This document shows, piece by piece, positions 188 to 55,947 of a DNA stretch of 64,000 nt. Location of the stretch: the IMG/VR virus record IMGVR_UViG_3300026382_000008; one strand, given 5' to 3'. The notes under the pieces are model-generated. The model was not told the DNA's origin. It ran no database searches and worked only from the letters and a program-made list of their open reading frames with translations. Origin of the DNA: an uncultured virus (IMG/VR IMGVR_UViG_3300026382_000008) (taxonomy: Duplodnaviria > Heunggongvirae > Uroviricota > Caudoviricetes). Position numbers and translations under genes: made by a program. The stretch's first letter is position 1; every line of letters starts with the position of its first letter.

Positions 188-2056
188 ATGAAAAGAATTC
201 TTGATATTGATGTGATAGCAGAAGCTGTAATGAATAGGGATGGACACCGCCCAAAAAGAGCGGTATCCAACAAAACACACATCCTCTTAAAAGACAGACT
301 ACACAAACCAATAACGACCAGGAAACACATTAACATAAAACAAGGTTGGCGAATAGCCAATCTTGAAGTTATGACACCTAACCCATTCTACAAAGAAACA
401 AACAATATACTAGTTTGGAATGCTCTTGGGTTTGACTTAGATAAAGAAGATGGCGAAAAAGCAGAATACGCCACCATACACATAAATCCAGAAAACGGAC
501 ACAAACACATTTACGTAGAACTTACACCCATCACATCATATAAAGGTCTCAAAACAATCATCTCTCAACACAAATCCAAAGTAGAAGCATCAATAGCTTC
601 TGCTTTATTCAACATAGAGAACAAAGAATTCATGCTCATTTCTGATATTATTGCAGAAGAAGCTCACAAAGAATTAGCAAAAAGGTTGCAGGCAGACCCT
701 GCAACCAGTACTCAAATAAACCACCCCTTCAGAACACTCAGATCTCCCGATAAGTCATATATTATTCAAACAAAAGCTTCGAAATCAGTATCTCTTTTTA
801 AACTTGCAAATGATCTTCATCTAAACAAAAAGAAACTTCTTGTCAAATACATAGAAACTTTAATCAATGAATACTCAAATTCAAAATTCTTTAAGCATAT
901 TACTATAAAAACATCCCTTAAAGAAGTACGTCAAAATGAATACGATATACCAGCTTTATGTGAATTTATTGTCAAACATTTCTGGAAAAAAGGTCATAGG
1001 CAAAATCTTTCAATGATCATAACAGGAATGCTTTATAGATGGTATAACAGAAGCTATATTAAAACACTTAACCATCTAAAATCACTTATTCCAAAAGATG
1101 ATGAAGAGTACAAGAAGAGATTTGATCCAATCAAACACATACGTTACAGGACAACTTATTATGGATTACCAACTGCTATACAATATATTCGAGCAAATTT
1201 TGACTCCAAATTTGATATCAAAGTTTTCAAAATTGATTCAAACAAAACAAAAATTGTTGAAATTCCAACAAAAGAACTCAAAAATAAGAAAAAATTGAGT
1301 CAATATGAATATGATCAGCTTACTCTATTATGCATAATGGGATTAACTCAAGATAAACGTTATACAAAGTATGATGCAAATAATGAAGAATTTGTTATCA
1401 CTCTAAACAGTTCGACAGAATTCGTAAGAAAAGTCAACAACTTTAAAAACTCAGATCACAAATCACAATACAACACTATCATAAGATCTCTTAACAGACT
1501 TGCAAAATCTGGTATTATTCATGTTGTTAAAGAAGCTTATTTTGACAAACAAACTTGGTCAAAGAAACAACGTATCATAATCAGACTGCCATTCAAATAC
1601 TTTAACATTATTAAGAGAAGCATAGTTTGGAATAAGAGTTTACAGCATTTTAGCATCTTTGCTCTTAATAAGATTCTTAAAGAAAAACAAGCTCATAAAA
1701 ACTTCAAAGAAAGAATCGTTAATGATGTCATCCTTAAATGCATTTGGATCTATATATTAGATTCTGACGATCCAATTCTTGATTCATTGTTTGTCAAATT
1801 TGATTCATTAATCAACTATACTTTGACAGAATCTTGGTACACAAAGATCAATAAATTATTTCTTTACAACGGAACATCAAATTGGTATATGTTTAACTTA
1901 ACAATGAAACAACTTACAAATTCAAGAATGCATAATAATGCTTATTCTGATTCATCTAAGTCAAAATTATTATTTAAGCTTTGGTTGATTCAATTACAGT
2001 TAGTTAATATTGTTTATGAAACATATTTTGAGATATGCAAAGAAAACATGCTTTAA
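188..2056 (+). CDS. ColE2-Rep-like primase (AEP replicase domain + PriCT-1-like + probable wHTH), copy 1
   Basis: FDLD, NPENGHKHIYV and LQADP motifs resemble ColE2-type Rep (DxD, NPxNGHAH, LxAD); WKKGHRQ resembles PriCT-1; SD AAGGAGGT before the ATG; paralog at 61365-63182. Confidence 0.6.
   Translation: MKRILDIDVIAEAVMNRDGHRPKRAVSNKTHILLKDRLHKPITTRKHINIKQGWRIANLEVMTPNPFYKETNNILVWNALGFDLDKEDGEKAEYATIHINPENGHKHIYVELTPITSYKGLKTIISQHKSKVEASIASALFNIENKEFMLISDIIAEEAHKELAKRLQADPATSTQINHPFRTLRSPDKSYIIQTKASKSVSLFKLANDLHLNKKKLLVKYIETLINEYSNSKFFKHITIKTSLKEVRQNEYDIPALCEFIVKHFWKKGHRQNLSMIITGMLYRWYNRSYIKTLNHLKSLIPKDDEEYKKRFDPIKHIRYRTTYYGLPTAIQYIRANFDSKFDIKVFKIDSNKTKIVEIPTKELKNKKKLSQYEYDQLTLLCIMGLTQDKRYTKYDANNEEFVITLNSSTEFVRKVNNFKNSDHKSQYNTIIRSLNRLAKSGIIHVVKEAYFDKQTWSKKQRIIIRLPFKYFNIIKRSIVWNKSLQHFSIFALNKILKEKQAHKNFKERIVNDVILKCIWIYILDSDDPILDSLFVKFDSLINYTLTESWYTKINKLFLYNGTSNWYMFNLTMKQLTNSRMHNNAYSDSSKSKLLFKLWLIQLQLVNIVYETYFEICKENML
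242..268 (+). other. Hairpin with CCAAAAAGA loop (copy 1)
   Basis: GGACACCGC-CCAAAAAGA-GCGGTATCC, 8 of 9 stem pairs; same loop at 63214-63240 on the - strand. Confidence 0.7.
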
Positions 2057-2158
2057 TGATTCTTAATTGTTTTTATATACATTTTTCAATGTATACCTAT
2101 ATTATATAGAAACAAAAATAACCTAACTCACAGAATATTTTTCACGAGGTTTATTGGT

Positions 2159-2704
2159 ATGACTTATAGTGAAACATTTGAGAAAGCAATGGAGTTTATC
2201 TTTCAATGGGAAGGTGGTTATGTAAACGATCCTGATGATCCAGGTGGTGAAACGAAATATGGTATCTCTAAAAGACAATATCCAGACTTAGATATAAAAC
2301 ATTTGACAAAGGAACAAGCTAAAGAGATATATTACAAAGATTATTGGTTGAAAGCTAAGTGTCATAAGATAGAAGGATTATGTGAACGATTGGCATTTGT
2401 GCATTTTAATTGTGCAATCAATACAGGTGTATACAATGCAAATCGTATTCTTCAAAAGTCAATAAATAGACAACTTGAAGATTCAAACTTAAAATTAATA
2501 GTTGATGGTGTTGTTGGTCCAAAAACATTACATGCTTTAGAAAAATGTAATACGGATTTCGTCTTTGAAACATATGTGTTAAATCTTGCACGCTATTATC
2601 ATACTTTAGTAATACATAAACCCAGATTAAGAAAGTTTATTGTTGGTTGGTTGAATAGAACCTTTGATGCTTATAAAGTAGCTCTAGAAGGGTTTAGATG
2701 TTAA
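2159..2704 (+). CDS. Endolysin, glycoside hydrolase family 108 with C-terminal peptidoglycan-binding domain
   Basis: EGGYVNDPDDPGGETKYGIS, VDGVVGPKT, GWLNR. Confidence 0.92.
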   Translation: MTYSETFEKAMEFIFQWEGGYVNDPDDPGGETKYGISKRQYPDLDIKHLTKEQAKEIYYKDYWLKAKCHKIEGLCERLAFVHFNCAINTGVYNANRILQKSINRQLEDSNLKLIVDGVVGPKTLHALEKCNTDFVFETYVLNLARYYHTLVIHKPRLRKFIVGWLNRTFDAYKVALEGFRC

Positions 2705-2763
2705 ACTGTGTTATTGAACTTGATATGTGATAAAAAATAAACATAGATGAGAGGTTAAGTAAA

Positions 2764-3066
2764 ATGAAGATTTTAAATGGAATTCTTGAAGCAATTATTC
2801 CTGCTAAGCTTAAGAAGTTTATCTCAAAACCAAGAAATAGACAGAAGCTTCTTGAAAAATGTGGTGCTAAAGCATTTCTTGTACCAGATCAACTAAAGTT
2901 TCCTGTTATGGATCAAAATTGTGAGTATAATTGTGCTTTAATTTTTTCAGCCTATCTTCGTGCAAGAGAATGGGGTTATGAAGACATAGCTGAGAAAGCA
3001 GCAGAATTGTTTGAGAAAAACAACTGTGCTGAAAAGATTGGTAGACATATCAGAGAAGAAACCTAA
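2764..3066 (+). CDS. Small Cys-containing hypothetical protein
   Basis: SD GAGGT; KCGAKAFLVP..LKFPV...C...AYLRARE pattern. Confidence 0.75.
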   Translation: MKILNGILEAIIPAKLKKFISKPRNRQKLLEKCGAKAFLVPDQLKFPVMDQNCEYNCALIFSAYLRAREWGYEDIAEKAAELFEKNNCAEKIGRHIREET

Positions 3067-3080
3067 GAGAGGGTTAATTC

Positions 3081-4331
3081 ATGTCTATATTAAAGACATT
3101 CAATGTTGATCAACAACATAGAGTTGCAGAACCATATCAACTAGTTGATGCATTTGCATACAGGGCTCTTATAAGACAATTGTTCGGAAATAAGACTCAT
3201 ATTTTTCTTGGATGGTTGACAAACAAATCTATTGAAAATACTGATTACAAGGTTAGAATCTATCCTTTTGCGTGTATAATACAGGATACACTTATTTACT
3301 TTGGTGATGCTACATTTTCCGAAACTCCTGTGTTAGAATATGATTTATCAGAAATAGCTTCTGGAAAAAGTGAGATTTATATAGGGGTTAAATACAACTT
3401 TGATTCGTCTTTCTCGAATCAACAGCCAGCAACAATTGCATTTAGTGATTCTCAAAGTGATTTAGATGTTTTGCTTGGTAAATTCATTGTAAGCGATAAA
3501 AGTGTAGAAGTTAACAACTATTCTTATCATCACTTATTTAGTATTTATAAACTAAATTACAACGATCTTTGGAATCCATCATCTTATAAATTAGCCCTAT
3601 GTATACCTGTTGATGCAGATGAACATACAGCTCTAACAATTCATAATGCAGGCAACCAAAAATGTCATTTATTCATAGATGGTGACGTTTTTGCAAACGA
3701 AGGAAAAAAGCAATTAGCTTATACTGATTTAAGTAATGTTTCTTCTTCTGCAGTTGTTAACAAAATTAAAGGAGCTGATGGATCAGGTTCAGGATTAGAT
3801 GCTGATAAGGTAGATGGTCTTGATGCTGATCGATTCTTAAGAAGAGATACATCTTCTGCACCAACAGAAGATGGTAAGTTTGATCTAGGATCATCAAATA
3901 AAAGATTTAAAACTGTTTATGCTGGTCGTTTTGACGGAACGGCATCATCAGCTGATTATGCTGACCTTGCAGAATACTTTATTGCAAATGAAGAATTAGA
4001 AGTGGGTGATGTAGTAAGTGTTTCTTCAAGTGATGATTATGAAATTGAAAAATCTGATGTTAACAGTAAAAATGTGCTTGGTGTGGTATCAGAGAAACCA
4101 GCTTATATCATGAATAATAAGATTAGCAATCATCCTTATGCATATCCAATAGCTTTAAAAGGTCGTGTTTTTGCTAAAGTAAAAGGTCCTGTTGAAAAAG
4201 GTGATGAATTGACAGTTGTTTCAAAAGGGATACTTGGTAAAAAGAAACAAGTTAATGATCGTGTTGTTGCTATAGCTTTACAATCTTTAAATTCTGATTC
4301 TGTAACTCTTTTGGAGGTTGTGGTAGTATGA
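3081..4331 (+). CDS. Tail fibre/appendage protein with C-terminal peptidase G2-like intramolecular chaperone domain
   Basis: GSGLDADKVDGLDADRFLRRD fibre motif; ADYADLAEYF...GDVV...LGVVSEKPAY...IALKGRV...KGDEL. Confidence 0.75.
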   Translation: MSILKTFNVDQQHRVAEPYQLVDAFAYRALIRQLFGNKTHIFLGWLTNKSIENTDYKVRIYPFACIIQDTLIYFGDATFSETPVLEYDLSEIASGKSEIYIGVKYNFDSSFSNQQPATIAFSDSQSDLDVLLGKFIVSDKSVEVNNYSYHHLFSIYKLNYNDLWNPSSYKLALCIPVDADEHTALTIHNAGNQKCHLFIDGDVFANEGKKQLAYTDLSNVSSSAVVNKIKGADGSGSGLDADKVDGLDADRFLRRDTSSAPTEDGKFDLGSSNKRFKTVYAGRFDGTASSADYADLAEYFIANEELEVGDVVSVSSSDDYEIEKSDVNSKNVLGVVSEKPAYIMNNKISNHPYAYPIALKGRVFAKVKGPVEKGDELTVVSKGILGKKKQVNDRVVAIALQSLNSDSVTLLEVVVV

Positions 4332-4858
4332 TAAATCCTGATAAACTCAAACAATTTATGACTGCTATTGATAACAATGATTGTGATACAGCAAAAACCA
4401 TATATGAGCAGATAAAGACAGAAACTATTTTAACATATATTGATATTCAATATTTTGAAGCACTAATTGCTCGTTGCCAGATTAATAAATTAACAGATTT
4501 AAATCAAATACGTCAGATACTTGATGATCTCAAAACCAAAAACAATGCATTTTTGTGTACTCATGTATTACCTTTGTTAATCAAATTGCTTGATGAAAGT
4601 GATGTTGAATATTGTAAGGATAAAAACCCTAAATCCTATGTTTTCATGAAAATCAGATATTTACTTAATGTATTACAACATAATCCAGATCAAACATCTT
4701 ATAATGAATTAAAGCAACTAATTACGAATTACAAAGACTTTATAGATGAATCTTCAAAGAATTTTATTCTTGATACTCTTCAGAATATAAATCTAGAATA
4801 CTTTAAGGAAGTTAAATCGTTGTTTGAAGGAGGCAATGTTGGGAACAATTCAAATTAA
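4328..4858 (+). CDS. Hypothetical helical protein
   Basis: ATGA overlap with upstream gene, SD GGAGG. Confidence 0.75.
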   Translation: MINPDKLKQFMTAIDNNDCDTAKTIYEQIKTETILTYIDIQYFEALIARCQINKLTDLNQIRQILDDLKTKNNAFLCTHVLPLLIKLLDESDVEYCKDKNPKSYVFMKIRYLLNVLQHNPDQTSYNELKQLITNYKDFIDESSKNFILDTLQNINLEYFKEVKSLFEGGNVGNNSN

Positions 4859-5945
4859 TGTAACAGAATCATGTAACTTAGCATGTAAATACTGTTATAT
4901 GCATAATAGAAATAATCAATTACCACAAGAAGTTATCAATCGTATTGATTATGTAGTAGAAAGAATTTCTCAGATTTTGAATGTTGATAAATTTCATGTT
5001 TCGTTTTTTGGTGGTGAACCTCTTTTAAAATTTGATTTAGTTTTAGAATTGTATGATAGATTGAAAGATCATAGGCTTGTAAACGGTTTTGTGATAATAA
5101 CAAATGGATTGTTGCTTGATGATGAAAAGGTTGACTTCATTAAAAGAAGTGGAGTAGGTGTATCATTCAGCTTTGACGGTCTCTGGACTCCGATCCAGAG
5201 ACCTCAAAAAAATTCAACAAATGATAATCTTCTTGAAATCTATGAATCTAAGAAAGATATAATTACTCAGGTGACACGTGGTTGTAAATGTATGGTTTAT
5301 CCTGAAACATGTGGGACGTTAGTTGAAAATTTTGAATACTTGGTTGAATCATGGGGATTTCGTTCTGTAGATTTTTCTATTGTAAGAGATGATATTTGGA
5401 CAAATGATAGTATAGAACACTTTAGAGAATCAGCTTTGAAGTATGCTGATAAACTTGCAGAGTATTTCAACAAAGGTGTGTATATTTCATCAGGTTTCAT
5501 ATGGCTTTGGATAATGGATAATTATATGCTCTTTAAATACAAAAGTAAGCGTAATTGGTCATGTTTTGCTGGTTTTACAGGTTGTGCAATCCATGTAGAT
5601 GGTAGATGTTATCCATGTAGCAGGTTTGCAACAAACAAACTATTTCCATTATATGATATTTACAAGGATCAAGTTTTTGAAGATAATGTAAACTTTTTCA
5701 AAGATCCTAAAGTGTCTGGAGTTCGTTTTCCAGAATGCCAATCTTGTAAACTTTCTAAGAAAGCTTGTTATGCAGGATGTAAATTTGAACAATTAAAACA
5801 AACTGATTTTAAGTATTCTAAACCTGTTAAATGTGTATGTAAATTATATGAAGTTTTTGATGAAGCATCAAAAAGATTTTTACGACAATTAAATTCGCAA
5901 ACGGAATACTTCAAATTCATTGAGTCTAGTTTAAAAAGGAGGTAG
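4824..5945 (+). CDS. Radical SAM/SPASM peptide maturase-like enzyme
   Basis: CNLACKYC, FFGGEP, SFDG; SPASM cysteines CFAG..GRCYPC..CQSC..CYAGC..C; true start probably 4836 or 4839 after GGAGG. Confidence 0.9.
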   Translation: MKEAMLGTIQINVTESCNLACKYCYMHNRNNQLPQEVINRIDYVVERISQILNVDKFHVSFFGGEPLLKFDLVLELYDRLKDHRLVNGFVIITNGLLLDDEKVDFIKRSGVGVSFSFDGLWTPIQRPQKNSTNDNLLEIYESKKDIITQVTRGCKCMVYPETCGTLVENFEYLVESWGFRSVDFSIVRDDIWTNDSIEHFRESALKYADKLAEYFNKGVYISSGFIWLWIMDNYMLFKYKSKRNWSCFAGFTGCAIHVDGRCYPCSRFATNKLFPLYDIYKDQVFEDNVNFFKDPKVSGVRFPECQSCKLSKKACYAGCKFEQLKQTDFKYSKPVKCVCKLYEVFDEASKRFLRQLNSQTEYFKFIESSLKRR

Positions 5946-5946
5946 T

Positions 5947-6186
5947 ATGAAAACGTCTATTTCTATTTCATGTAATCTTTTACTTAATGTTTCAAAAATT
6001 CTTGAGAAAGAAGAACCTCTTATTTCTAATCTTCTCATTGTTATCTCAGATTATCTTATAAACAAATATGATAATAATCAATCAAAGGATAATATCTGTA
6101 AAGAGAAACAGTGTCATGTACAAAGTTGTGATGTTTCAGATGAAGAGGTTCAAGAGTTTCTAGAATTTCTTGAGCAGGAGGAATAA
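5947..6186 (+). CDS. Small acidic accessory protein in the radical SAM operon
   Basis: SD AGGAGG, tightly coupled between two radical SAM genes. Confidence 0.7.
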   Translation: MKTSISISCNLLLNVSKILEKEEPLISNLLIVISDYLINKYDNNQSKDNICKEKQCHVQSCDVSDEEVQEFLEFLEQEE

Positions 6187-7011
6187 ATGACTCATATTCT
6201 TTTTATCACAAATCAGTGTAATCTTGCTTGTGAATACTGTTATGAACAACAAGAGCGTCATAAAACTAAACCATTTTTTGTTTCTGATGAAGAAATTGAT
6301 GTTCTAATACACTCAATTAATAAATCTTCTGATCAACATCATTGCGTAGTTTTATTTGGTGGTGAACCTTTGTTAAAACCTGATCTTGTGCAACATGTTA
6401 TATTATCAGTTTTGAATAATGTAAAGAAAGATAAAATGATAACATTTAATCTGATAACTAACGGAATATACTTTTCTGATAAAGAAAATCTTGAAAAATG
6501 GCATGATTTCATACAGAAACATAATGTTTATATAAGCTATGATATTTCATTTGATGGTTTTGATGATAAGCGACGTGTTGATAAGTCTGGTAAACCAGTT
6601 GTAGATAAAATTATCAAGTGTTTAAACAATTTTGAAGAGTTGAATATTCCTTATAGAATTAGCTATACTCTTCATAAAGCTAATCTTAACTCATTTATCA
6701 ATGATTTTATTCAGATCAGAGAACGCTTTAAAAATTGTCAAAGAATTATTTTAAGAGTCAATTTTAAAGAAGTTGTTAGTGAGTTACATATGAAATCGTT
6801 AGAAGAGTTTAAACAGTATCTTAAACAAGTTATGTCTGTCGTTTATATTTATCTTCGTATACCAATTTGTGAATGGGTATGCAACTTATGTGACGTTAAT
6901 TGTAAATCCACAACAGTTAAATATGTTGTAGCTAATGAAGAAGAAGATTCTGAGATGGTCTTTAACAAGTTTACAAAACGAGAACAAAAACTATCTAAGG
7001 AGGAAAGGTGA
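6187..7011 (+). CDS. Radical SAM enzyme with short Cys-rich C-terminus
   Basis: CNLACEYC, LFGGEP, ISFDG, C-terminal CEWVCNLCDVNC. Confidence 0.9.
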   Translation: MTHILFITNQCNLACEYCYEQQERHKTKPFFVSDEEIDVLIHSINKSSDQHHCVVLFGGEPLLKPDLVQHVILSVLNNVKKDKMITFNLITNGIYFSDKENLEKWHDFIQKHNVYISYDISFDGFDDKRRVDKSGKPVVDKIIKCLNNFEELNIPYRISYTLHKANLNSFINDFIQIRERFKNCQRIILRVNFKEVVSELHMKSLEEFKQYLKQVMSVVYIYLRIPICEWVCNLCDVNCKSTTVKYVVANEEEDSEMVFNKFTKREQKLSKEER

Positions 7012-8093
7012 AATCTCTTTTTATTGATCTGACTCTTACTCAACAATGTAATTTTCGATGTAAATATTGTTTTGAATCTGGTCATTTCAAATCTCGTAAA
7101 CTTTATGAAACTATTACTTTGGATGCTCTTTATAGCTTTATAAATGAACTTGTTAAGAAATTTAGAATTGATAGAGTGACGTTTGGTATGTGGGGTGGTG
7201 AGCCCCTCCTAGAAATAGACTATATGCTTGATATCATAAAGCAATTTGAAAATGAACCTTGGTTTTATAAAACATTTGTCTTTACAAACGGTTACTTAAT
7301 AGATTCTGTTCTTGATAAGTTATCGACTGTGAAAGATAAAATATGGATTCAAGTTAGTTATGACGGAAAAGTTATTCATGATAAATATCGAAAATCGATT
7401 GATCATCAACTAACCTCTGATAGAGTTTTGCATAATTATAAGTTGTTAGTAAAACACAATTTTGAATGCTCAATCAAGTCAGTTTTACCGGTTTCAGACA
7501 TACATAATCTGGTTGAAGTCTATAAGGAATTTGAATCTTTAAATGAAACTTATCTTACAAAATTCAACAAGTCTCTTATATACAATCCATCATTTGATTA
7601 CTACAGTCTCTATGATTGGTCAGAGATTGAGAATAAGCTTAAGCAAGCTTTAAAGAATCTAATTGGCTACTTAAAACATAAAGAAAGAATTTACATCTCC
7701 TGGTTTCAACCACGACCTAAACGAGCCATATGTTCTTTAGGATCCAGCATGATTGCTATCGATGTAAATGGTTTCATACATCCATGCCATGGTTTTATCT
7801 ATTACAAGGATCACAAATTCAAAACACATATATTTGATCACAATGTTTTTGATAAACTTGAGTTAATGTTCAACTTTTTTAGCCAAAAAAATAAGTATGA
7901 GCCTGCTGAATGTAAGTCATGTACAGTGAATTTTTGTATGAGATGCAATGCATCTTTTTATTCTCTTTCAAAGAAGACATCAGACTATGAACGTTTATGG
8001 GACAAAGATTCAACTATATGGTTATGTAAAACTTATAAACTTATTGATAAAGCTTATCGAGCATTAAAACACTATAAAAGTATAACTAGATGA
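7008..8093 (+). CDS. Radical SAM/SPASM peptide maturase-like enzyme
   Basis: CNFRCKYC, WGGEP, SYDG; CSLG..GFIHPC..CKSC..CMRC..C. Confidence 0.9.
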   Translation: MKSLFIDLTLTQQCNFRCKYCFESGHFKSRKLYETITLDALYSFINELVKKFRIDRVTFGMWGGEPLLEIDYMLDIIKQFENEPWFYKTFVFTNGYLIDSVLDKLSTVKDKIWIQVSYDGKVIHDKYRKSIDHQLTSDRVLHNYKLLVKHNFECSIKSVLPVSDIHNLVEVYKEFESLNETYLTKFNKSLIYNPSFDYYSLYDWSEIENKLKQALKNLIGYLKHKERIYISWFQPRPKRAICSLGSSMIAIDVNGFIHPCHGFIYYKDHKFKTHIFDHNVFDKLELMFNFFSQKNKYEPAECKSCTVNFCMRCNASFYSLSKKTSDYERLWDKDSTIWLCKTYKLIDKAYRALKHYKSITR

Positions 8094-8104
8094 GGTTTTG
8101 AATA

Positions 8105-8848
8105 ATGGGAGCTCCTTGTCCATCAAATGTAACACATTGGACTGATGAACCACTTAATTCTTCTATTGTTATAAAAGCTTATCATATAGAAGAATTAAGA
8201 AATGCTATTAACAGAGAAAGACAAAGAAGAGGATTAGCGAAACATTCATGGCAAACAAATATCACATCAGGAATTGTTATTCGTGATGAGCATGTAAAAG
8301 AAGTAGCTGACGTTGTTAAATCAACAGATACACATCATATACTAAAATGGTCCATTAACTATAACAATCTAGATGGTAAATTAATTGAAGATGACCATAT
8401 TGAAGAACTAAGACGCAACATCAATAAACTTGAACAAGAATGTTTATGTGACTGTGATTACTGTACATGTGATTGTAATTACTGTACATGTAACTGCAAC
8501 TATTGTACCTGCAATTGCGATTATTGTACCTGCAATTGTGATTATTCATGTACTTGTGATTGTAATTATAGTTGTACTTGTGATTGTAATTATAGTTGTA
8601 CTTGTAATTGTGATTATTGTACCTGTAATTGTGATTATTCATGTACTTGTGATTGTAATTATTCATGTACATGTGATTGCAATTATTGTACTTGCGACTG
8701 CAATTACTGTACTTGTGATTGTAATTATAGTTGTACATGCGACTGCCACTATGACTGTACATGTAACTGCAACTATTGTACATGCGACTGTGATTACTGT
8801 ACATGTGATTGTAATTATGCTTGTACTTGTAACTGTAATTATCGTTAA
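8105..8848 (+). CDS. Cys-repeat protein, candidate radical SAM substrate (112-aa N-domain + 18 CxC[DN]C[DNH]Y repeats)
   Basis: SD GAGGT; repeat codons vary synonymously (tgt/tgc, gat/gac, aat/aac) while the peptide pattern is held. Confidence 0.85.
   Translation: MGAPCPSNVTHWTDEPLNSSIVIKAYHIEELRNAINRERQRRGLAKHSWQTNITSGIVIRDEHVKEVADVVKSTDTHHILKWSINYNNLDGKLIEDDHIEELRRNINKLEQECLCDCDYCTCDCNYCTCNCNYCTCNCDYCTCNCDYSCTCDCNYSCTCDCNYSCTCNCDYCTCNCDYSCTCDCNYSCTCDCNYCTCDCNYCTCDCNYSCTCDCHYDCTCNCNYCTCDCDYCTCDCNYACTCNCNYR
8441..8845 (+). repeat. Coding tandem repeat, 18 units of 21 or 24 nt
   Basis: Consensus tgtac(t/a/c)tgt(g/a)attgt(a/g)atta(t/c) with an optional extra codon. Confidence 0.95.
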
Positions 8849-8858
8849 GGAGGCAATT

Positions 8859-9368
8859 ATGATTTTTCAAATTTTCAAAATAGATAACGATTTATATGCT
8901 CTTATTCCACTCAAAGATACTTCAAAGTATTTTCCTTTAGCATTCTCCATTTCTGTTGAAAAAAATCATCAACTTATTGATTATGCTATGCAATTGTACA
9001 ACAATAACAGAGTTTTATGTTTGACTCATGATCAATTACATCAGATCGAGACACTAAAACCTGATGAATGTCAATTTAAAGACTTATCAGAATTTCCACA
9101 ATTATCAGCTATAGATCAGGTATCAAAAGTTTTTAACGAATATGTACTAAAGTTTAACTTTACTATTCTTGATATTCTTTTCTATTTGAATGATAAACCT
9201 ATTGAATCTAAGAAAGTTGATTTGCTTTCTAATATAGTCGAGATCTATTTAGATACCCTTTATGAAATAGTTGTTTTACAGAATACTCGTGATCTAAACG
9301 AAAAGATTGATACCATGAAAAAGAGGTTGGAAGATGCTTATCAAAGCTTTTTATCAGAAAACAAATAA
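8859..9368 (+). CDS. Hypothetical protein
   Basis: Start reassigned to ATG 8859 (SD AAGGAGG); the upstream extension in the ORF track is an off-frame reading of the repeat. Confidence 0.75.
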   Translation: MIFQIFKIDNDLYALIPLKDTSKYFPLAFSISVEKNHQLIDYAMQLYNNNRVLCLTHDQLHQIETLKPDECQFKDLSEFPQLSAIDQVSKVFNEYVLKFNFTILDILFYLNDKPIESKKVDLLSNIVEIYLDTLYEIVVLQNTRDLNEKIDTMKKRLEDAYQSFLSENK

Positions 9369-9765
9369 TCCTTTTTGTATGAAAGAAACTTTAGATTCGT
9401 CTAAACAAATTGTATATCTTACAAAACCTAGTCAGTTTGTACCTATCACAGCTTCTAATTATATCAACACACGATCTTATGATAGTTGCGAAGAAGCGGA
9501 AAAAGAAGCTAAGTTTGATATAGAATTTTTCTCCTATCTACGAAATCGTATTTATCCATCTTTTGTACTCATGTTGGTTAAGAAGTACTTAGAAAACTGG
9601 TTCAAAACAAAAGGATATAGTGTTGCTAAGGATGAAGATTATGTGGTAATTTTAACATCTGGTGATGAAGAGCTAACAAAGAAACTTATGTTATATCTTA
9701 TGATTAAAGATGCTTTAGGGACATTCATTAATGGGATGGGATATAGTTGGGATTATAAGAAGTAA
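9334..9765 (+). CDS. Hypothetical protein
   Basis: SD GAGGT, operon-like overlap. Confidence 0.7.
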   Translation: MLIKAFYQKTNNPFCMKETLDSSKQIVYLTKPSQFVPITASNYINTRSYDSCEEAEKEAKFDIEFFSYLRNRIYPSFVLMLVKKYLENWFKTKGYSVAKDEDYVVILTSGDEELTKKLMLYLMIKDALGTFINGMGYSWDYKK

Positions 9766-10516
9766 CGGTTTATCAGGGCTTGTTTTCGATGTATGTGATT
9801 ATTTATTTTATCACCATGTGTACTTTGGATGTAAAGTAGCTATCGTTACCAATTTGAATATCAATATCTTAAAGAATTTCATAAATCAACATTATAGATA
9901 TCATTTGGAATATGATATTTTTGGCATATCAAACTTAGAAACAATAAAGACAAATATTTTGATTACAACAATTCTTAACAAAGATGTGCTAAAATATATT
10001 GAGTTTAATGAGTTATATTTCGTTCCTAATCAGATTTATTATTCTCTTTTTGATAGAGTTACAGTACACAATATTAAGAAAATTTGGTTTCAGGGTTTGA
10101 AAATTCATAAGCCTTTATACGAAAAAAACTTATTAATTTATTCTACTGATTACCCTTTAGTGTTTCCGATGAAAGATAAAATTTTATCATACACTAAAAT
10201 TTTAGTATACAAATCTCCTTTTTTAGCTAATCATCTTTCGAAAATTTACGATAGACCTATATACGCTTTATTACCATCAAAAGATTTCTTTAGTATGTTT
10301 GACAGCATGTTGATCTTAGACTCCAAAACATCCTATCAACGTCCAAGTTACACTCCTAGATTACCACTTGAAATCAGATATTTTGGATATGAATGTGAAT
10401 ACCTGGGTAGTGACAAAGTTATTCAAGAAAGAGTCAATCGTCCAATTGAATTCTTCTCATTTCCAGATTTAGAGGCGTCACCAAAATGGTTTATATCCTT
10501 ACCTCGGATTATCTGA
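9731..10516 (+). CDS. Putative GT-B glycosyltransferase-like protein, paralog 1
   Basis: SGLVFDVCDY at the N-terminus and TPRLPLEIRYFG at the C-terminus match the two downstream paralogs. Confidence 0.45.
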   Translation: MGWDIVGIIRSNGLSGLVFDVCDYLFYHHVYFGCKVAIVTNLNINILKNFINQHYRYHLEYDIFGISNLETIKTNILITTILNKDVLKYIEFNELYFVPNQIYYSLFDRVTVHNIKKIWFQGLKIHKPLYEKNLLIYSTDYPLVFPMKDKILSYTKILVYKSPFLANHLSKIYDRPIYALLPSKDFFSMFDSMLILDSKTSYQRPSYTPRLPLEIRYFGYECEYLGSDKVIQERVNRPIEFFSFPDLEASPKWFISLPRII

Positions 10517-11307
10517 AACATTCTTATGTTTGCGGTCACTTTTTTGAAGCTTTAGATATACATTTTATGTTGAATAGAGTTGGAATACAATCGCAAATTT
10601 GTACATTTAACAAGAATTTTGCATTATACACTGATGTTTATGTTAAGAGTCTTTATGAAGATAAACTTGTTGATAATGTATCAATTCAATATCTGACAAA
10701 ACCATTTTATCAATTTGATGGACCAGTTATAGTAACAGATGGGGCTCTTGATAAAGTATTTGTTCGGGCCCCATCTGTTATTCTTTGTTTATGTAGCAAG
10801 TTTGATGTATCTCATATCTTGTCTGATAAGATTTTTATTTTAGGTGATACTAGATTTATGACTAAAGATTTCATTAAAGAAAAGTTCCAGATTGTTAATG
10901 AAGATCATTTAGAAAAGTATGATATTATACATTATGTTAAAAAAATAGCTTTTGACTTTTATAAACGCTATGATAGTTTTGATTCTCGATGTCTTATTTA
11001 CATGGGAAATAGAATGAAAATGACTGAATCATTACCAATACTAAAATGTAATATGTTGACGATTAAAAATCAATTACCAATCCCTAATCTACATAAACAT
11101 TTTGATACGTACATTTATACACCAGTTAAACGTCAATATGATTGTAGTAACAGACTAATAAAAGAGTGTCAATTCTACAACAAAAAAATTGTCTTTGCAA
11201 TTGATTATGAAGATATAGCATTACAGATACGATATGAAGATGACTTAAGTAATGTTTGGTTTACAGAGAATGATGATCTTATCAACCTAATACGAGATTT
11301 GTTATGA
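10486..11307 (+). CDS. Putative GT-B glycosyltransferase-like protein, paralog 2
   Basis: CGHFFEALD; DCSNRLIKEC (D-x7-E, similar to the GT4 E-x7-E motif). Confidence 0.5.
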   Translation: MVYILTSDYLKHSYVCGHFFEALDIHFMLNRVGIQSQICTFNKNFALYTDVYVKSLYEDKLVDNVSIQYLTKPFYQFDGPVIVTDGALDKVFVRAPSVILCLCSKFDVSHILSDKIFILGDTRFMTKDFIKEKFQIVNEDHLEKYDIIHYVKKIAFDFYKRYDSFDSRCLIYMGNRMKMTESLPILKCNMLTIKNQLPIPNLHKHFDTYIYTPVKRQYDCSNRLIKECQFYNKKIVFAIDYEDIALQIRYEDDLSNVWFTENDDLINLIRDLL

Positions 11308-12143
11308 TCTTGCTTACCTATTCTTTTGAAAAACATGGTTTTTCTGGTCATATATTTGAGGTATTAGATTACTTTTATTGGTTGACTGTTAATGGATTTA
11401 CAAATATATATTTTGCGATTCCGTTTTTTACATTTGATGATATATTAAGAATTGTAAGTTCTCGTTATACAAAAAAGTTTTACGATTTCATATATAATCA
11501 AAGAAACAGGTATGTGTACATCGACAAAACATATGTTTCTAAACCAGTTATTGATTTAACAAAATTTTCAATCGTAATCTCCACTAATGGAGGTTTATGT
11601 TATAATAGACATAAACGTGTATTTTTACAAAACTTTGTAGGATTTAGATGCAACATAGAAAAAGATACATCTTTATACGTTATAGGTTTTCGCTATATTT
11701 TGCAAGATTCGCGTATTTATGTTAGTGATTGGTCCGATTTTCAAACAATCGACTATATCAAGAAAATTTTATTTGATTCTATAAAATACGAACCATGTGA
11801 TAATGTTTATGAATATGCTGCTTATTGTCAAGGAACTCAAAAAGACATATGTCATAAATTTGTAGACATAATAAATGATTCATGTTTAATTATAGGACGA
11901 ACTCAAAAACCTCCTATTGATAATCTTTTTGCAAAGTTTAAGACATATTTAGTAACACCTACTAGAAGAAAATTCGATTGTTCACCAAGATTAATAAAAG
12001 AGTGTCAATACTTTGATAAAGAAATTCTTTTTCTGAATCAACCAGATTATAGCACATATATACGTTATAAAGACCCTTTAGATAAAGTTGATTTGAAAAA
12101 TGATGAATTTATTTTGGAATTTCTGGAGAAGATTACATGTTAA
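11304..12143 (+). CDS. Putative GT-B glycosyltransferase-like protein, paralog 3
   Basis: SGHIFEVLD; DCSPRLIKEC. Confidence 0.5.
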   Translation: MILLTYSFEKHGFSGHIFEVLDYFYWLTVNGFTNIYFAIPFFTFDDILRIVSSRYTKKFYDFIYNQRNRYVYIDKTYVSKPVIDLTKFSIVISTNGGLCYNRHKRVFLQNFVGFRCNIEKDTSLYVIGFRYILQDSRIYVSDWSDFQTIDYIKKILFDSIKYEPCDNVYEYAAYCQGTQKDICHKFVDIINDSCLIIGRTQKPPIDNLFAKFKTYLVTPTRRKFDCSPRLIKECQYFDKEILFLNQPDYSTYIRYKDPLDKVDLKNDEFILEFLEKITC

Positions 12144-13135
12144 CATTTAAAGACATTCTAACAGTTTTCAATATAACTGATAACAAATGTCTTAATAAGC
12201 GTTATTGGTTATTTATCGGTACACAATGCAATGTATCGTGTTCTTTTTGTTATTACAGAAAGCATCATAAGTACTTCAAAACATTAGAAGAACTTGAATT
12301 TTTAATGCAACATGTTCTGAACATTTACCATTTTGAAGAAGTTGATATTTCAGGTGGTGAACCTTCAATTTATCCTGATTTAGAACAACTCGTATTAATG
12401 CTTAGAAATAAGTTTCAGTTAAAAGTAGGAGTTGTTACAAACGGATTTTCACATAAACATCTAGATCTATTTGATGATAGACTTTTAACCTTTCATGGTT
12501 TCGAAGATGATTATTATTTAAGTGTTGGAAGTAAGAAATTATTTTCTGTATTCATCAATACGTTAGAATTCTGTGAAAAACATGATATATTCATTAGAAT
12601 AAACTTTGTTCTTTTTAACGAAAATCAGTACAACAAACTAGATAATTATCTTGAATTCTTACAGCAATTTAAAGTTGTTAAACAAGTTAATCTACTTCCA
12701 ATTAATGCATGGTCCGACCAAAAAAATACAACTTTTAATCGTTATCGTCCTCTTAACATACATAATATATACAATTTTGAAATCAATATAAGATATTTTC
12801 CTTACTGCTTAACTAATCGTCCAGAATTTGTTGTCTCAATGTTAGGACACATATGGGACAAAAGAGATTGGAGTGTACTTAGCTATAAACTTCCAGATAA
12901 GATTTTGAGAAACGATGATCTCTATCGATATGAATGTATACATTATGTACAAACACGGCTTTCTTCTACTCACAAGATGTTAGATATATGTAGTAAGTGT
13001 AAGTACTTTAAGATATGTGATGGTATACAGTTAAAACAGTATGATAAGATTGATAAAAGTCTGTTTAAACCTTTAGAGGGAGAATACGTTTATGATCCAA
13101 GAAACATTAGAAAATCATGTCCTGGAGATTTATGA
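12137..13135 (+). CDS. Radical SAM enzyme with C-terminal Cys cluster
   Basis: CNVSCSFC, SGGEP, FPYC, CSKCKYFKICDG. Confidence 0.9.
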   Translation: MLTFKDILTVFNITDNKCLNKRYWLFIGTQCNVSCSFCYYRKHHKYFKTLEELEFLMQHVLNIYHFEEVDISGGEPSIYPDLEQLVLMLRNKFQLKVGVVTNGFSHKHLDLFDDRLLTFHGFEDDYYLSVGSKKLFSVFINTLEFCEKHDIFIRINFVLFNENQYNKLDNYLEFLQQFKVVKQVNLLPINAWSDQKNTTFNRYRPLNIHNIYNFEINIRYFPYCLTNRPEFVVSMLGHIWDKRDWSVLSYKLPDKILRNDDLYRYECIHYVQTRLSSTHKMLDICSKCKYFKICDGIQLKQYDKIDKSLFKPLEGEYVYDPRNIRKSCPGDL

Positions 13136-14081
13136 TAGAGATCACCTTATAAATCGTCTTTATGTACATATGGATCTTTTAATGCATTGTAATCAAAGAT
13201 GCTCATATTGTTATGCATTCAAGTATAATAAAAAACACGTTATTGTTCCACCAAAGAAGGTATCATTAATACTAGAAGCTTTATCTCATGCAAAACTACC
13301 TGTTTTTCTAGGTATTCAAGGAGGTGAGCCGTCACTATATCCTCTTAAAACCCTAATAAATTCTTTTGAATTATTTTTACAATCAAAAACTAAAAATAGA
13401 GTATACTTTACAACTAATTTCTATAAACCTTCTTTCTGGTTTGACCTTTTAAAGTGTTTTTCAAAATCTTCAAGAAATAAACTTTATCTACTAGTGTCAT
13501 TTCACCCTGAATACGTTAAAGATGAGATATCTTTCATATACAATTTGTATGAAATAAGCCATTTAGTAAAGAAAGTAAGAATCAATGTAATGTTGTACCC
13601 TCCTTATTTATCTAAATGTATACGTGTTCTAAAATTTCTTCTTAATGATATGTTTCGACCAAAAAACCTAGAAATTCATCCTCATTTTCTTTATATTGAG
13701 AGTATAAAATTCTGGCCGTATAAAAACGATATCTGGTATAAGCTTGAATTTCTCAAATATTATGATGAATTAAAGTACATTAAAGTGCGAACAACATATC
13801 AAGATTTGCTTTTATCTGATTATGAATACTTTAGATATGGATTTCATAAAACAGTTAAACATATGTTTTGCTATCATAATAATTTTGAAATATTTGTTGA
13901 TGGTGTAATCAAAAATATATGCATGAATAAAACGTTTGATTTGTCTTATATTGTCAATTTAGAGCAAATTAAACCTATTGTATGTCCTAATGAACAATGT
14001 TGTTGTGATGGTCTTGTGAAACAATATAAACGGTCACAATACATTGAACCAAAGTTTAACAACGAACTTAGACTGTGGTAG
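13092..14081 (+). CDS. Radical SAM enzyme (twitch-like C-terminus)
   Basis: CNQRCSYC, QGGEP, SFH, C...C...CPNEQCCCD. Confidence 0.88.
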   Translation: MIQETLENHVLEIYDRDHLINRLYVHMDLLMHCNQRCSYCYAFKYNKKHVIVPPKKVSLILEALSHAKLPVFLGIQGGEPSLYPLKTLINSFELFLQSKTKNRVYFTTNFYKPSFWFDLLKCFSKSSRNKLYLLVSFHPEYVKDEISFIYNLYEISHLVKKVRINVMLYPPYLSKCIRVLKFLLNDMFRPKNLEIHPHFLYIESIKFWPYKNDIWYKLEFLKYYDELKYIKVRTTYQDLLLSDYEYFRYGFHKTVKHMFCYHNNFEIFVDGVIKNICMNKTFDLSYIVNLEQIKPIVCPNEQCCCDGLVKQYKRSQYIEPKFNNELRLW

Positions 14082-15007
14082 GAATTATGAAAGCTGTCTT
14101 ACATGATTTAGATTTCATTTTTAGTAATTCATGTAATTTAAAGTGTCCTTATTGTGATCATACATATCTTTATAGAAATAAGACATTCACACATATAAAC
14201 TTTGATGAAATTTACTTATCAATGGTTACTCCTTTAATTGAAAAGACAAAAATTGTAAGTTTATCAGGTGGTGAACCAGGAATTCTGAATAGAGAATTTG
14301 TAACAAACTTTCTTGAATTTCTTGATTCTCATAACAATGATTTTTCACTATACATATATACTAATGGTTTGTTTATAGATCGTTATATACATCTTCTTAC
14401 AACATTTAAACATAAAGTAAGGATTATCTGGCATCTGGCACCGGAACCATCAGAAATTCATATAGAAAAAGCAAAAACTTATCTGAAATATTCTTTTCCT
14501 ATAATTGCCCATGTGGTGCTTCATAAACATAACATTGAATATCTTAAACATTTTCTTATTCAGTGGAAGAAGATATTACCAACTTTTCCGATCAGAGTTG
14601 GTCTTTTCACATCAAATGAAAAGTTTCTTAGAGAAAGATTTGAAGTCAAAAGTGAAGATGTGTTAGATTTTAGTGATTTTTGTGCTGTTCACAAAATAGA
14701 CTTTATTTTTAAGTTTTCTAAATTGTTAAAGGTTCAACCTAAGATGGATTACTGTATACGAAAATTCTGTTTCTTTAATAGATCTAACCTCATTGTAGAT
14801 TTTGAAGAGAAACAATTTATAAGATGTTGTTGGATGGATCCACAAAGAGCTATTTCATTCGAAGAGTTTAATGATGAAAATTTGAGAGATAAATTCTTGA
14901 ATGATTTTTCATATGACGCATGTAAATCATGTAATCATTGTTTGTATGATTTGAAAGATCCTTATCTTCTAAAATGGTTAAGATCATGCTTGTTGAATGG
15001 GAAGTAA
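14075..15007 (+). CDS. Radical SAM enzyme
   Basis: CNLKCPYC, SGGEP, RCC...CKSCNHC. Confidence 0.88.
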   Translation: MVGIMKAVLHDLDFIFSNSCNLKCPYCDHTYLYRNKTFTHINFDEIYLSMVTPLIEKTKIVSLSGGEPGILNREFVTNFLEFLDSHNNDFSLYIYTNGLFIDRYIHLLTTFKHKVRIIWHLAPEPSEIHIEKAKTYLKYSFPIIAHVVLHKHNIEYLKHFLIQWKKILPTFPIRVGLFTSNEKFLRERFEVKSEDVLDFSDFCAVHKIDFIFKFSKLLKVQPKMDYCIRKFCFFNRSNLIVDFEEKQFIRCCWMDPQRAISFEEFNDENLRDKFLNDFSYDACKSCNHCLYDLKDPYLLKWLRSCLLNGK

Positions 15008-15750
15008 CTTTAAAATGTAATTTTGATTGCAAATACTGTGGTCTACGTCAGAAGATAGAAGAAGAGATAGATGAGTTAAAACTTGATAGATTCATACAAA
15101 AACTTAAGACTTACAACACTGAAATCTTTTGTTTTGGTGGTGAACCCTTTTTACACCCGAAAATTCATTTTATAACACAAAAACTTTTTGAGTATGATGT
15201 TAAACATGTTTTTCAAACGAACTTTTCACCTTATTCCGTAAAATGTTTTGGATCATTAAAGTATAAACCAATTTTGCAAATTTCAATACATGAACCATAT
15301 TATGAATCTTTAAAAGATCATTATATAGCGTCTATTAAAACTTACAAAAATTATATCAGACAGATAAGCATTATGTTTCTAACACCTAAAGCATTAAAGA
15401 TATATGATGAGTTGAAAACCATAATAGATGAATCTAAATTAGTTATATCAGCAATTGGTGATTTCAAAGTTACAGGATTTATAGATTCTTTACATATGTT
15501 TAATCAACTATCGAGAACACTCAATAAGAGATATAACTTTGAGACACCTATTAAACAATATGGAAAGTATAGATTATCACGTCCTTTGCTTTGGGAATTG
15601 ATAATGACTGGAAAAATTGAACCAACTCGTGGTAAGCCTTGTCTTTATAAAGGTCGATATATTTTATTTGATCCTCAATTAAATTCTTATAACTGTAGTT
15701 ATAGATGTAATTCTGATATATGCCCACACAAATGTTGTTTCTTTATGTAG
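14974..15750 (+). CDS. Radical SAM enzyme
   Basis: CNFDCKYC, FGGEP, ISIH, C-terminal CPHKCC. Confidence 0.88.
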   Translation: MVKIMLVEWEVTLKCNFDCKYCGLRQKIEEEIDELKLDRFIQKLKTYNTEIFCFGGEPFLHPKIHFITQKLFEYDVKHVFQTNFSPYSVKCFGSLKYKPILQISIHEPYYESLKDHYIASIKTYKNYIRQISIMFLTPKALKIYDELKTIIDESKLVISAIGDFKVTGFIDSLHMFNQLSRTLNKRYNFETPIKQYGKYRLSRPLLWELIMTGKIEPTRGKPCLYKGRYILFDPQLNSYNCSYRCNSDICPHKCCFFM

Positions 15751-17256: not shown

Positions 17257-17839
17257 TATAAGTTTGAGTAGTGTTAAACGTATAAACTTGAATGAATGTG
17301 GAGAGATTTGGACTATACTAACAGATTCAAGTATCGTTTACAATCTTGAATCGTTAACTTGTTTACCGAATCTCAGCATAACTGATCATATTATAGATTA
17401 TGTTTATGATTCGTATCTATTTCGTATATCGAAATCAATTTTTCTAAAACTTTACAAAAAATATGTATATCTCTTGATCAATGAATTACCTGGTAATAAA
17501 AAGTTTATATCATCAGACATACTTTGTAGGGAGTTGATTCCGTCTGAACATATCATTTTATCTAGAAATTTCATTTCATTCGTAATACATAGACAAAAGA
17601 AACTACGACTTGTTTTGCCTAATATAGAAAACTTTTTGTTGTATGATCAATCTTATTACTATATAGACATAGATTCGTTCATCATTCCTAAAGATACGTA
17701 TTTGCTTTCAACATGGATTGATGTCTACAATGGTATTGTAATCTACAATCGCAAAACAAACAAATTAAAACATTATCATAAATTGTTAACTTGTACTTAT
17801 AACAGACCTTTCAAATTCATAGAGGTTAACTCATGTTAA
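17138..17839 (+). CDS. Hypothetical protein (weak kinase-like N...D motif)
   Basis: ENFLLYDQSYYYIDID; start uncertain because of the long overlap. Confidence 0.55.
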   Translation: MELNISKSQVENSPVLDLLKNLKTNYKSLKQLFKLLEEVNISLSSVKRINLNECGEIWTILTDSSIVYNLESLTCLPNLSITDHIIDYVYDSYLFRISKSIFLKLYKKYVYLLINELPGNKKFISSDILCRELIPSEHIILSRNFISFVIHRQKKLRLVLPNIENFLLYDQSYYYIDIDSFIIPKDTYLLSTWIDVYNGIVIYNRKTNKLKHYHKLLTCTYNRPFKFIEVNSC

Positions 17840-33559: not shown

Positions 33560-33567
33560 TCTTGACC

Positions 33568-53430: not shown

Positions 53431-53448
53431 CCTCTTTATTGAGATTTA

Positions 53449-55926: not shown

Positions 55927-55947
55927 TGAATACCTCCTAAGTAGGTC

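Follow-up and report, generated by a model that had tools for sequence, protein, structure and literature searches.

We analyzed a 64,000-nucleotide stretch (hereafter, the window) of the uncultured Caudoviricetes virus record IMGVR_UViG_3300026382_000008, a phage-like contig with a G+C content of ~30%. Our subject is a cassette in which three radical S-adenosylmethionine (rSAM) genes, rSAM1 to rSAM3, lie upstream of a gene for a protein with Cys-rich repeats, which we call REP. On the + strand, positions 2159-23300 form a single closely packed gene run, and within it the open reading frames (ORFs) from 3081 to 8848 overlap or are separated by gaps of at most 11 nt (Table 1); their positions and order are those given in a preliminary description that was made from the letters of the sequence. 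We use the word operon only in the sense of this tight spacing, since a scan of the cassette region marked no cassette boundary: promoter-like sites fell below the shuffle mean, terminator-like sites numbered 5 versus 2.9 ± 1.5 in shuffled sequence (~1.4 standard deviations above), and neither kind delimits the cassette. The same gene set accompanies REP in many phages that are only distant relatives. We put the chance at about even that the enzymes install Cys thioether links in REP, a protein of fibre type, at C-x-x-[N/D] motifs that occur twice per unit.

Table 1. Genes and protein regions of the REP cassette and its downstream flank
Feature	Position	Strand	Evidence
Tail-fibre-like protein, 416 aa	3081..4331	+	phrog_19602 'tail fiber protein', E 3.6e-26
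176-aa ORF, window-specific	4328..4858	+	No Pfam/PHROG family at thresholds used
rSAM1, radical SAM, SPASM-type C-terminus, no RRE	4824..5945	+	PF04055 E 2.1e-16
79-aa small protein between rSAM1 and rSAM2	5947..6186	+	Small-ORF family via hhalign; no Pfam/NCBIfam family
rSAM2, 274 aa, short, without SPASM	6187..7011	+	PF04055 E 2e-17
rSAM3, seven conserved C-terminal Cys (SPASM-type)	7008..8093	+	PF04055 E 3.5e-15; stops 11 nt short of REP
REP N-terminal domain, residues 1-112, three predicted helices	8105..8440	+	AlphaFold2
REP repeat region, 18 units, 54 Cys, plus stop codon	8441..8848	+	Unit count on translation
171-aa ORF, window-specific	8853..9368	+	Sub-threshold Pfam matches only; no relatives in loci
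143-aa ORF of conserved family	9334..9765	+	Family profile alignment E 7.7e-8; no named family
Three paralogous proteins, 261, 273 and 279 aa	9731..12143	+	Travel with cassette
Four further radical SAM genes, other types	12137..15750	+	PF04055 or PHROG rSAM matches

REP has 247 residues (8105-8848), and its repeat region is built from 18 copies of the unit C-[TL]-C-[DN]-C-[DNH]-Y, of which nine have 7 residues and nine have an eighth. The preliminary description had counted 54 Cys in 135 residues; the count of Cys stands, the length is 134 residues, and the whole protein has 55 Cys. The synonymous codon variation that it mentioned is easily seen, with Cys encoded by TGT 43 times and TGC 11 times, Thr by ACA 7, ACC 3 and ACT 7 times, and Tyr by TAT 14 and TAC 4 times. 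At the DNA level the units match at only 76%, and the residues C, T and Y are nearly invariant. The same description had also pointed to N-x-x-C as a sign of thioether chemistry. This motif is present five times (and D-x-x-C three times), but it carries little weight because it is confined to some of the 8-residue units. C-x-x-[DN], on the other hand, occurs 36 times, two per unit, and the general motif across the repeats is C-x-x-[N/D/Q].

AlphaFold2 gives the N-terminal domain (N-domain) confidence means, over blocks of 10 residues, of 69 for residues 1-10 and 90-97 for residues 11-110, with helices predicted at 25-41, 61-74 and 96-111; along the repeats it draws strands. E38, R41 and R42 are conserved in the N-domain, and E38 and the Cys columns are invariant in the family alignment. 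The REP model has no fold match at E ≤ 1e-3 in the PDB or BFVD, and a Pfam search at E ≤ 10 returned no family for REP or for four of the six relatives examined. Fibrinogen matches of the REP sequence profile in the PDB were discarded as chance-level, and the ArgZ-like Pfam matches of relatives P0003 and P0121 (E 0.069 and 0.25) are likewise at chance level. A homotrimer prediction for REP scored 0.00, which is no verdict and bears neither for nor against binding. An Atlas link from REP to PF27846 (score 0.81, 52% of members) is an unconfirmed lead.

The repeat is more than a chance pattern, as 693 database proteins match REP at E ≤ 1e-3; REP also matches phrog_26958 (E 4.5e-33). Members of the family have an N-domain of ~110 residues followed by 3 to 28 heptads, and REP has both of the family's features, a helical N-domain with E-x-x-R-R and then C-x-C-x-C-x-Y units. 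Across 820 units in 91 distinct proteins, the unit reads C, T (77%), C, N/D/Q (96%), C, N (86%) and Y (88%), plus a spacer of 0-1 residues. A search of 185,579 prokaryote genomes yielded only four loci, which makes the family an essentially viral one; these four are all on contigs of metagenome-assembled genomes.

Several variants of the protein were seen among the relatives (loci carry L numbers, proteins P numbers). In one, encoded by the ORF after the rSAM3-type gene (L039-L069), the repeat number is fixed at four C-x-C-[NH]-x-[DVN] units, each with two Cys in six residues, and the protein ends in C-N-Y plus a full S74 domain; another has a run of C-H-S-[ND] units (L102, 9142-9645). P0127 and P0129 have an insert of ~200 residues inside the N-domain, by eye a beta-rich binding module, which no Pfam family matches. 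In L006 (6595-7122 and 10784-11443), a heptad protein without the usual N-domain sits in a T4-like tail/baseplate module, with small separate S74 proteins directly after it and ~2.9 kb upstream. L002, L007, L012 and L014 have a short C-x-G-H motif midway along the small ORF that separates the rSAM genes and again, in repeated form, at the REP N-terminus, where a common metal site or a tag for recognition is conceivable; 23 of the 91 REP proteins start with M-A/G-C-x-G/A-H, and the window's proteins are without C-x-G-H.

The three enzymes are radical SAM proteins, as first described: their PF04055 scores of 61.0, 64.3 and 57.0 bits (rSAM1, rSAM2 and rSAM3, respectively) exceed the cut-off of 29.5, and all carry CX3CX2C, with Cys at 17/21/24, 11/15/18 and 14/18/21. 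rSAM1 has nine C-terminal Cys and a borderline match to the Pfam SPASM family (20.4 bits vs a cut-off of 21.5). rSAM3 has no Pfam SPASM match; C242, C260, C302, C305, C310, C313 and C340 are invariant across 15 orthologs, and its alignments to the PapB, anSME and CteB models run over the full length. rSAM2, which had already been described as lacking SPASM, is indeed without this domain, because its C-terminal Cys are limited to a CX3CX2CX3C block near the C-terminus (residues 228-239).

For all three enzymes, the best NCBIfam model is the PapB ranthipeptide maturase NF047865 (141.4, 87.6 and 103.0 bits), the rSAM2 match spanning just model positions 6-202. Other maturase models are matched at similar low levels, among them anSME (57-72 bits), the YhhB/HxsB cyclophane type (48-69 bits), SCIFF and the QhpD-type model TIGR03906 (54-80 bits), and rSAM3 matches CefB at 76 bits. 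The best solved relative of all three is 5WGG/5WHY, on which rSAM1 aligns with E 9e-18 (query residues 7-322 on chain residues 97-419); the rSAM3 profile finds 5WGG at E 3.2e-22 and the anSME structure 4K37 at E 2.7e-13. A search for the recognition element (RRE) of enzymes that mature peptides made on the ribosome and modified after translation (RiPPs), which had been suggested as a check, found none in the three proteins: the cluster motif starts at residue 11-17 and leaves no room for an RRE. The alignments to 5WGG set query residues 5-13 against chain residues 97-101 (start positions across 5WGG/5WHY, 97-113), the RRE-equivalent N-terminus being absent from the phage enzymes, and RRE-bearing NCBIfam models are matched just from position 73-101 on.

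In a maximum-likelihood tree of 82 rSAM proteins, made by a quick search only, rSAM1, rSAM2 and rSAM3 fall into three clades of 15, 12 and 16 rows, supported at 99, 97 and 99 in the Shimodaira-Hasegawa-like approximate likelihood ratio test (SH-aLRT). These three orthogroups nest in one clade of 51 rows (support 95), separate from the phages' other rSAM genes, including the four that follow in the window at 12137-15750.

We surveyed the neighbourhood of REP homologs, as had also been suggested, and found rSAM genes near REP in 29 of 35 loci. These comprise 26 of the 31 viral loci, with the rSAM gene within 10 kb (25 by phmmer and L023 by Pfam), and three of the four loci from prokaryote genomes. 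The usual order is tail fibre, rSAM1, small ORF, (rSAM2), rSAM3, REP, at 25-45% protein identity to the window, and in 16 of the 31 viral loci, as in L034 and the window, no more than 150 nt separate the end of an rSAM3-type gene from REP. Linkage persists in rearranged orders: the enzymes are found 3.7-9.6 kb downstream of REP in L036, and L008 and L010 have still other orders. L015, L016, L018 and L019 were set aside as examples of rSAM-less loci; the contigs break off shortly after REP, and in L036, which is related to them, all three enzymes follow downstream. The small ORF, too, recurs in place. Twelve loci have one between rSAM1 and the next rSAM gene, and hhalign matches a small-ORF alignment (A4) to the window's 79-aa ORF with a probability of 84.9% (E 6.4e-6, 51 columns); jackhmmer alone found no relatives of this ORF in the loci.

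The association also holds in the reverse direction. A profile of the 15 rSAM3 orthologs retrieved 79 viral loci (18 of them contigs already in the REP search), and a profile search found a REP-family ORF on the same strand in 66 of these, L092 having just a 71-residue fragment; an ORF with at least three C-x-C-x-C is present in 40 of the 79. Eight of the 13 loci without REP hold a matched gene that is outside the rSAM3 orthogroup. L111 is cut off at the rSAM gene, L076 is cut off ~1.3 kb past the next (rSAM1-like) gene, and L067 is a whole contig of 8.6 kb. Judged by this gene content, the set makes up a functional unit that is conserved and goes with the repeat protein.

The cultured Campylobacter phage CP220 holds the same components in a different arrangement. 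It has 11 rSAM matches, with one clear member for each orthogroup profile: CPT_0023 for rSAM1 (395 bits), CPT_0099 for rSAM2 (231 bits) and CPT_0184 for rSAM3 (472 bits). Whereas the window's genes are clustered, those of CP220 are scattered over 177 kb, with the enzymes at 16 kb, 84 kb and 165 kb and its REP-family protein, CPT_0180, at 161 kb. For a shared function, the presence of the whole set in dispersed form is better evidence than synteny. CPT_0180 resembles REP in its six to seven heptads, and the window's REP DNA matches its 21-bp repeats in a DNA search; it differs in its length of 534 aa, its different and longer N-terminal part and an extra C-terminal region. Papers from 2010 and 2012 reported this 21-bp repeat and many ‘unusual’ rSAM genes and, in their accessible text, do not connect the two (PMC2853527, PMC3322345). 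They count 11-12 radical SAM genes in group II Campylobacter phages and propose metabolic or DNA-related roles for them there (PMC2853527, PMC3322345). As far as the accessible literature goes, these genes have lacked an explanation since 2010 (PMC2853527), and they still did in 2025 (PMC12398825). The Campylobacter phage homologs came from the DNA search and from a scan of viral proteins; tblastn of REP against the phage collection gave no match, probably owing to its low-complexity filter. Gene 3-9 of phage IBB_35 would be another REP homolog.

The composition of the enzyme set varies with the type of repeat. After de-duplication to 45 groups (rSAM3 at least 80% identical; the L021 group counted as heptad), rSAM2 was present in 17 of 23 heptad-type groups versus one of 18 non-heptad groups, which have a two-Cys hexad or other variants (Fisher p 1.65e-5, for groups that share ancestry and are not phylogenetically independent). 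Two C-x-x-[N/D/...] motifs per unit are common to both repeat types; what the heptad has beyond them, in each unit, is a third Cys and a Tyr. Because rSAM2 tracks the type with these additions, we propose rSAM1 and rSAM3 for the registers that both types share, where rings would run from Cys1 to position 4 and from Cys3 to position 6, and rSAM2 for the heptad-only feature, either the third Cys or the Tyr.

In one alternative, REP is a substrate of some other chemistry, such as sactionine formation (at the alpha-carbon), a Cys-Tyr link or Tyr cyclophane, or Cys oxidation as in anaerobic sulfatase maturases. Such a chemistry would fit the many maturase families matched at similar low scores, the conservation of Tyr in 88% of units, and the fact that rSAM2 follows the heptad, the sole type with Tyr in every unit. 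It fits less well with the ranthipeptide type of PapB being the best model for all three enzymes or with the lack of a sulfatase motif, and the C-x-x-[N/D/Q] spacing agrees with that of CrpA, a proven thioether substrate in the accessible portion of its report (PMC13692751). We regard these chemistries as quite unlikely.

The surroundings of REP are those of a phage fibre. The preliminary description saw the cassette as coupled to a tail fibre gene, and this extends beyond the window: at least eight further phage groups, too, have a fibre gene upstream. By BLASTP, it is the C-terminal part of the tail-fibre-like protein (3081-4331) that is kept immediately upstream of rSAM1 in other phages, with relatives directly before rSAM1 in L007, L011, L012, L014, L021/22, L027, L028/29 and L031 and directly before REP in L015/16, L018/19 and L036. 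This protein has a weak Peptidase_G2 IMC match in Pfam (E 0.0012, under the cut-off) and no match in the PDB. Giant collagen-repeat fibre genes come directly before REP in L015, L018 and L036. In relatives of REP, the last repeat is followed at once by the self-cleaving fibre-chaperone domain PF13884 (S74, ‘chaperone of endosialidase’), aligned from profile position 1 on and scoring above the cut-off in P0072, P0105 and L043 and below it in P0065, P0099 and L053. P0141 holds a Hint domain in the place of S74 (27.2 bits vs a cut-off of 28.4), and 50 of the 91 family members end in a 12-residue tail that retains the S-D-x-x-L-K with which S74 begins.

An intracellular role for REP, for instance as a Cys-rich scaffold or store that gives iron-sulfur (Fe-S) clusters to the phage's rSAM enzymes, has to be weighed against this context. 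The window has at least eight rSAM genes plus NrdG that could draw on such a store, and its own REP has no S74 tail. Relatives, however, are fused to S74 or, in P0141, Hint, or come directly after giant fibre genes; their repeat number ranges from 3 to 28, as in fibre shafts; and REP is tied to three particular rSAM orthogroups and not to rSAM number. An intracellular helper thus seems very unlikely to us.

The gene layout also invites comparison with RiPP clusters, in which REP would be a precursor whose N-domain is cut away to release a product, be it a toxin, signal or anti-defence peptide: a part without Cys precedes a Cys-rich C-terminal core, beside SPASM enzymes. Yet a classical cluster has a leader where REP has a folded domain of 110 residues, the core reaches 28 units in the family, the neighbours are fibre genes, and no protease, exporter, immunity gene or RRE was found. 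The absence of a transporter, signal peptide and leader protease had been remarked on from the start, and among the 17 ORFs at 188-14081 we find no transporter, peptidase or signal-type family. We consider a released peptide extremely improbable. The earlier suggestion of a virion appendage in place of a secreted peptide holds up as to type, in that the REP product looks like a part of the particle by its folded N-domain, by the S74 domains of its relatives and by the missing exporter and protease; as to location it holds less firmly, because the window REP lacks the S74 tail and a place in the virion is suggested by the relatives.

A number of observations weigh against thioether modification of REP or against its place in a fibre. 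N or D at alternate positions together with an aromatic residue could be purely structural, as in the Asn ladders of a beta-solenoid, and the repeat region is modelled at low confidence (pLDDT score of 33-73). The PapB scores are far under the cut-off of 340 and do not place the enzymes in that family, and all three enzymes miss the cut-offs of all named maturases. Related T4-like phages share much gene order and carry many rSAM genes (at least eight in the window, 11 in CP220), which takes some of the apparent weight from proximity as sole evidence. The entire 43.8-kb record of L006 (23% complete) encodes a heptad protein but no rSAM enzyme, the 14.5 kb examined of L037 are likewise free of rSAM genes, L101 and L104 have rSAM3 and no REP within ~7 kb, and three heptad groups are without rSAM2 in the flank examined. 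The window REP ends in ...C-N-Y-R without S74, with no Pfam match even at E 10, and a profile of 25 REP-linked S74 domains found no S74-like ORF in the window.

The main rival is metal binding without modification. Here REP would be a structural fibre or rod whose rows of Cys bind metal or Fe-S clusters or pack the core of a trimeric or solenoid shaft, and the rSAM enzymes would act elsewhere, on the tail fibre, on sugars from the downstream glycosyltransferase-like genes or on nucleotides. Metal-lined fibre cores are known from T4 gp37. The C-x-C spacing sets the Cys on one face of a strand, in keeping with the strands that AlphaFold2 predicts in the repeats; the S74 chaperones of relatives imply a trimeric fibre; the L006 heptad protein lies in a tail module lacking rSAM; and these phages have many rSAM genes of unassigned role in the accessible text of PMC2853527. 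What this rival leaves unexplained is the two-way co-occurrence of REP with one rSAM trio (66/79 and 29/35 loci), the retention of all three enzymes, unlinked, in CP220, and the way rSAM2 follows repeat type; nor does a metal site require that position 4 be restricted to N/D/Q. We consider it unlikely, and on the question raised in the preliminary description, whether REP is cross-linked or loaded with metal or Fe-S, the sequence cannot tell the two apart.

For the thioether reading, which we prefer, we can outline how the parts would work together. The 18 Cys-rich repeats of REP would be the substrate of the three upstream enzymes, which would abstract a hydrogen from the side-chain carbon of the Asn or Asp three residues after a Cys and join that carbon to the Cys sulfur, the outcome being ranthionine-type thioether rings. 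Since the enzymes are without an RRE, recognition would probably occur through the folded N-domain of REP, perhaps aided by the 79-aa protein. The product may be a covalently stapled virion rod or appendage, associated with the neighbouring tail fibre. Its links would be independent of disulfides, which would suit a host with little or no oxygen. A more far-reaching version of this proposal is that large T4-like phages, cultured Campylobacter phages included, have a dedicated rSAM trio that makes a ladder of thioether staples, 2-3 per seven residues and ~50 at most here, with one Cys register per enzyme, and so build a virion rod that is free of disulfides and proof against reduction. We hold this version to be possible but somewhat doubtful.

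Three rSAM genes of the Campylobacter phages thereby gain a concrete candidate substrate, CPT_0180, and as it sits in phages that can be grown, the idea is directly testable. If it is true, thioether chemistry of the RiPP type would extend from peptides and one archaeal protein to virus particles, a structural protein of a virus would for the first time be seen to undergo RiPP-type maturation, and REP would be among the most densely cross-linked natural proteins. It would also mean that extracellular proteins can be covalently braced without disulfides in low-oxygen hosts, and the modular substrate, with 3 to 28 units, would allow the study of several rSAM enzymes that share one protein.

Of the remaining genes in and around the cassette, two appear to be specific to the window. 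The 176-aa ORF has a best NCBIfam score of 18 bits vs a cut-off of 40, and jackhmmer found no relative of it among 116 loci; jackhmmer likewise found no relatives of the 171-aa ORF or of orf100 in the loci. The family of the 143-aa ORF, on the other hand, has 77 jackhmmer matches, one per source (the window and 76 collected loci), and comes after REP in other phages. The three paralogs that follow belong to a family with 91 matches in 65 sources (the window and 64 loci), often interleaved with rSAM genes. phrog_24441 matches the 273- and 279-aa paralogs (E 9e-10 and 1e-14), and no PHROG was found for the 261-aa paralog. Their structural likeness to GT-B glycosyltransferases in the Atlas (TM 0.55-0.65) is under the tool's bar, so that a glycosyltransferase-like fold is possible and serves as a lead only. 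Together with the four rSAM genes behind them, the paralogs (9731-15750) may be a second modification module.

Further rSAM-type genes lie elsewhere in the window, one at 17833-18837 (+), recognized by its CX3CX2C pattern only, and one at 50246-50890 (-); between the latter and a tail fibre assembly gene (48836-49546) lie ~0.7 kb and two small ORFs. In a related locus (L001, 1947-3694), genes between the rSAM genes resemble by eye an acyl carrier protein, a hot-dog dehydratase and a ketosynthase. The rest of the window includes a DNA polymerase, a helicase, aerobic and anaerobic ribonucleotide reductases and tail genes. The polymerase is apparently in two ORFs (27234-28175 and 31229-33571, -), with phrog_262 positions 107-629 and 612-851 on separate genes; the two are ~3 kb apart, with the helicase and other genes between, and an HNH endonuclease gene is nearby (35465-36022). 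At 51659-58212 (-), NrdA/NrdB-like aerobic and NrdD/NrdG-like anaerobic reductase sets stand side by side, as would suit a host exposed to variable oxygen. We guess that this host belongs to the Campylobacterota, going by the G+C content and by the relatives among Campylobacter phages. Near-identical DNA is present in sequencing runs labelled hydrothermal vent metagenome; one of these, X1, may be where the window comes from, and X2, from a separate study, has 92% of the sampled words.

Among known systems, endosialidase-type fibres share with REP relatives a C-terminal S74 directly after the repeats, whereas the window REP has neither S74 nor tail; in the literature searched, we found none with a Cys-heptad shaft or rSAM partners. 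Nor did we find a paper on a phage system of rSAM enzymes and a Cys-repeat protein in a search that covered the literature without most subscription journals. The proposed modification does have precedents among cellular enzymes. In QhpC, the gamma subunit of quinohemoprotein amine dehydrogenase, a few links are made in a small enzyme subunit. As would be the case in the phage, the rSAM/SPASM enzyme QhpD sets Cys-to-Asp/Glu thioethers in a subunit that stays in a larger assembly; unlike the phage system, QhpC has no repeat array and is not known from phages. PapB with freyrasin and CteB with SCIFF follow a repeated Cys-to-Asp or Cys-to-Thr thioether logic. Their substrates are short, leader-bearing bacterial peptides, unlike REP, and the phage enzymes are without the RRE-equivalent N-terminus.

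The closest tested analogue is CrpC/CrpA. In the accessible portion of its report (PMC13692751, 2026), which also names PDB 5WHY as CteB, the SPASM rSAM enzyme CrpC of Methanococcus voltae modifies CrpA with ranthionine links; CrpA (28.8 kDa) is engaged by way of an N-terminal region, and its Cys repeats, which carry C-X-X-Q/D, are C-terminal. The systems differ in several respects. The family of CrpC is TIGR04463, to which the phage enzymes do not belong (rSAM3 scores 69.1 and rSAM2 45.3 bits vs a cut-off of 525), and CrpC contains an RRE, which they lack. As far as the report's accessible text describes it, the Crp system is archaeal and cellular, has a suspected metal role and uses one enzyme on 17-residue repeats, whereas the phage system adjoins tail-fibre genes and has three enzymes and units of 7 or 8 residues with three Cys. 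In other respects the two appear alike, within the same description: each pairs SPASM-type rSAM proteins that are nearer to PapB than to sactisynthases with a substrate that would be a whole protein, made up of an N-terminal part without Cys and C-terminal Cys repeats of the form C-x-x-(acid/amide), for which a beta-rich fold is predicted at low confidence. REP, with its conserved N-domain and its 36 C-x-x-[DN] motifs in 134 residues, has the features by which a CrpA-type substrate is described there.

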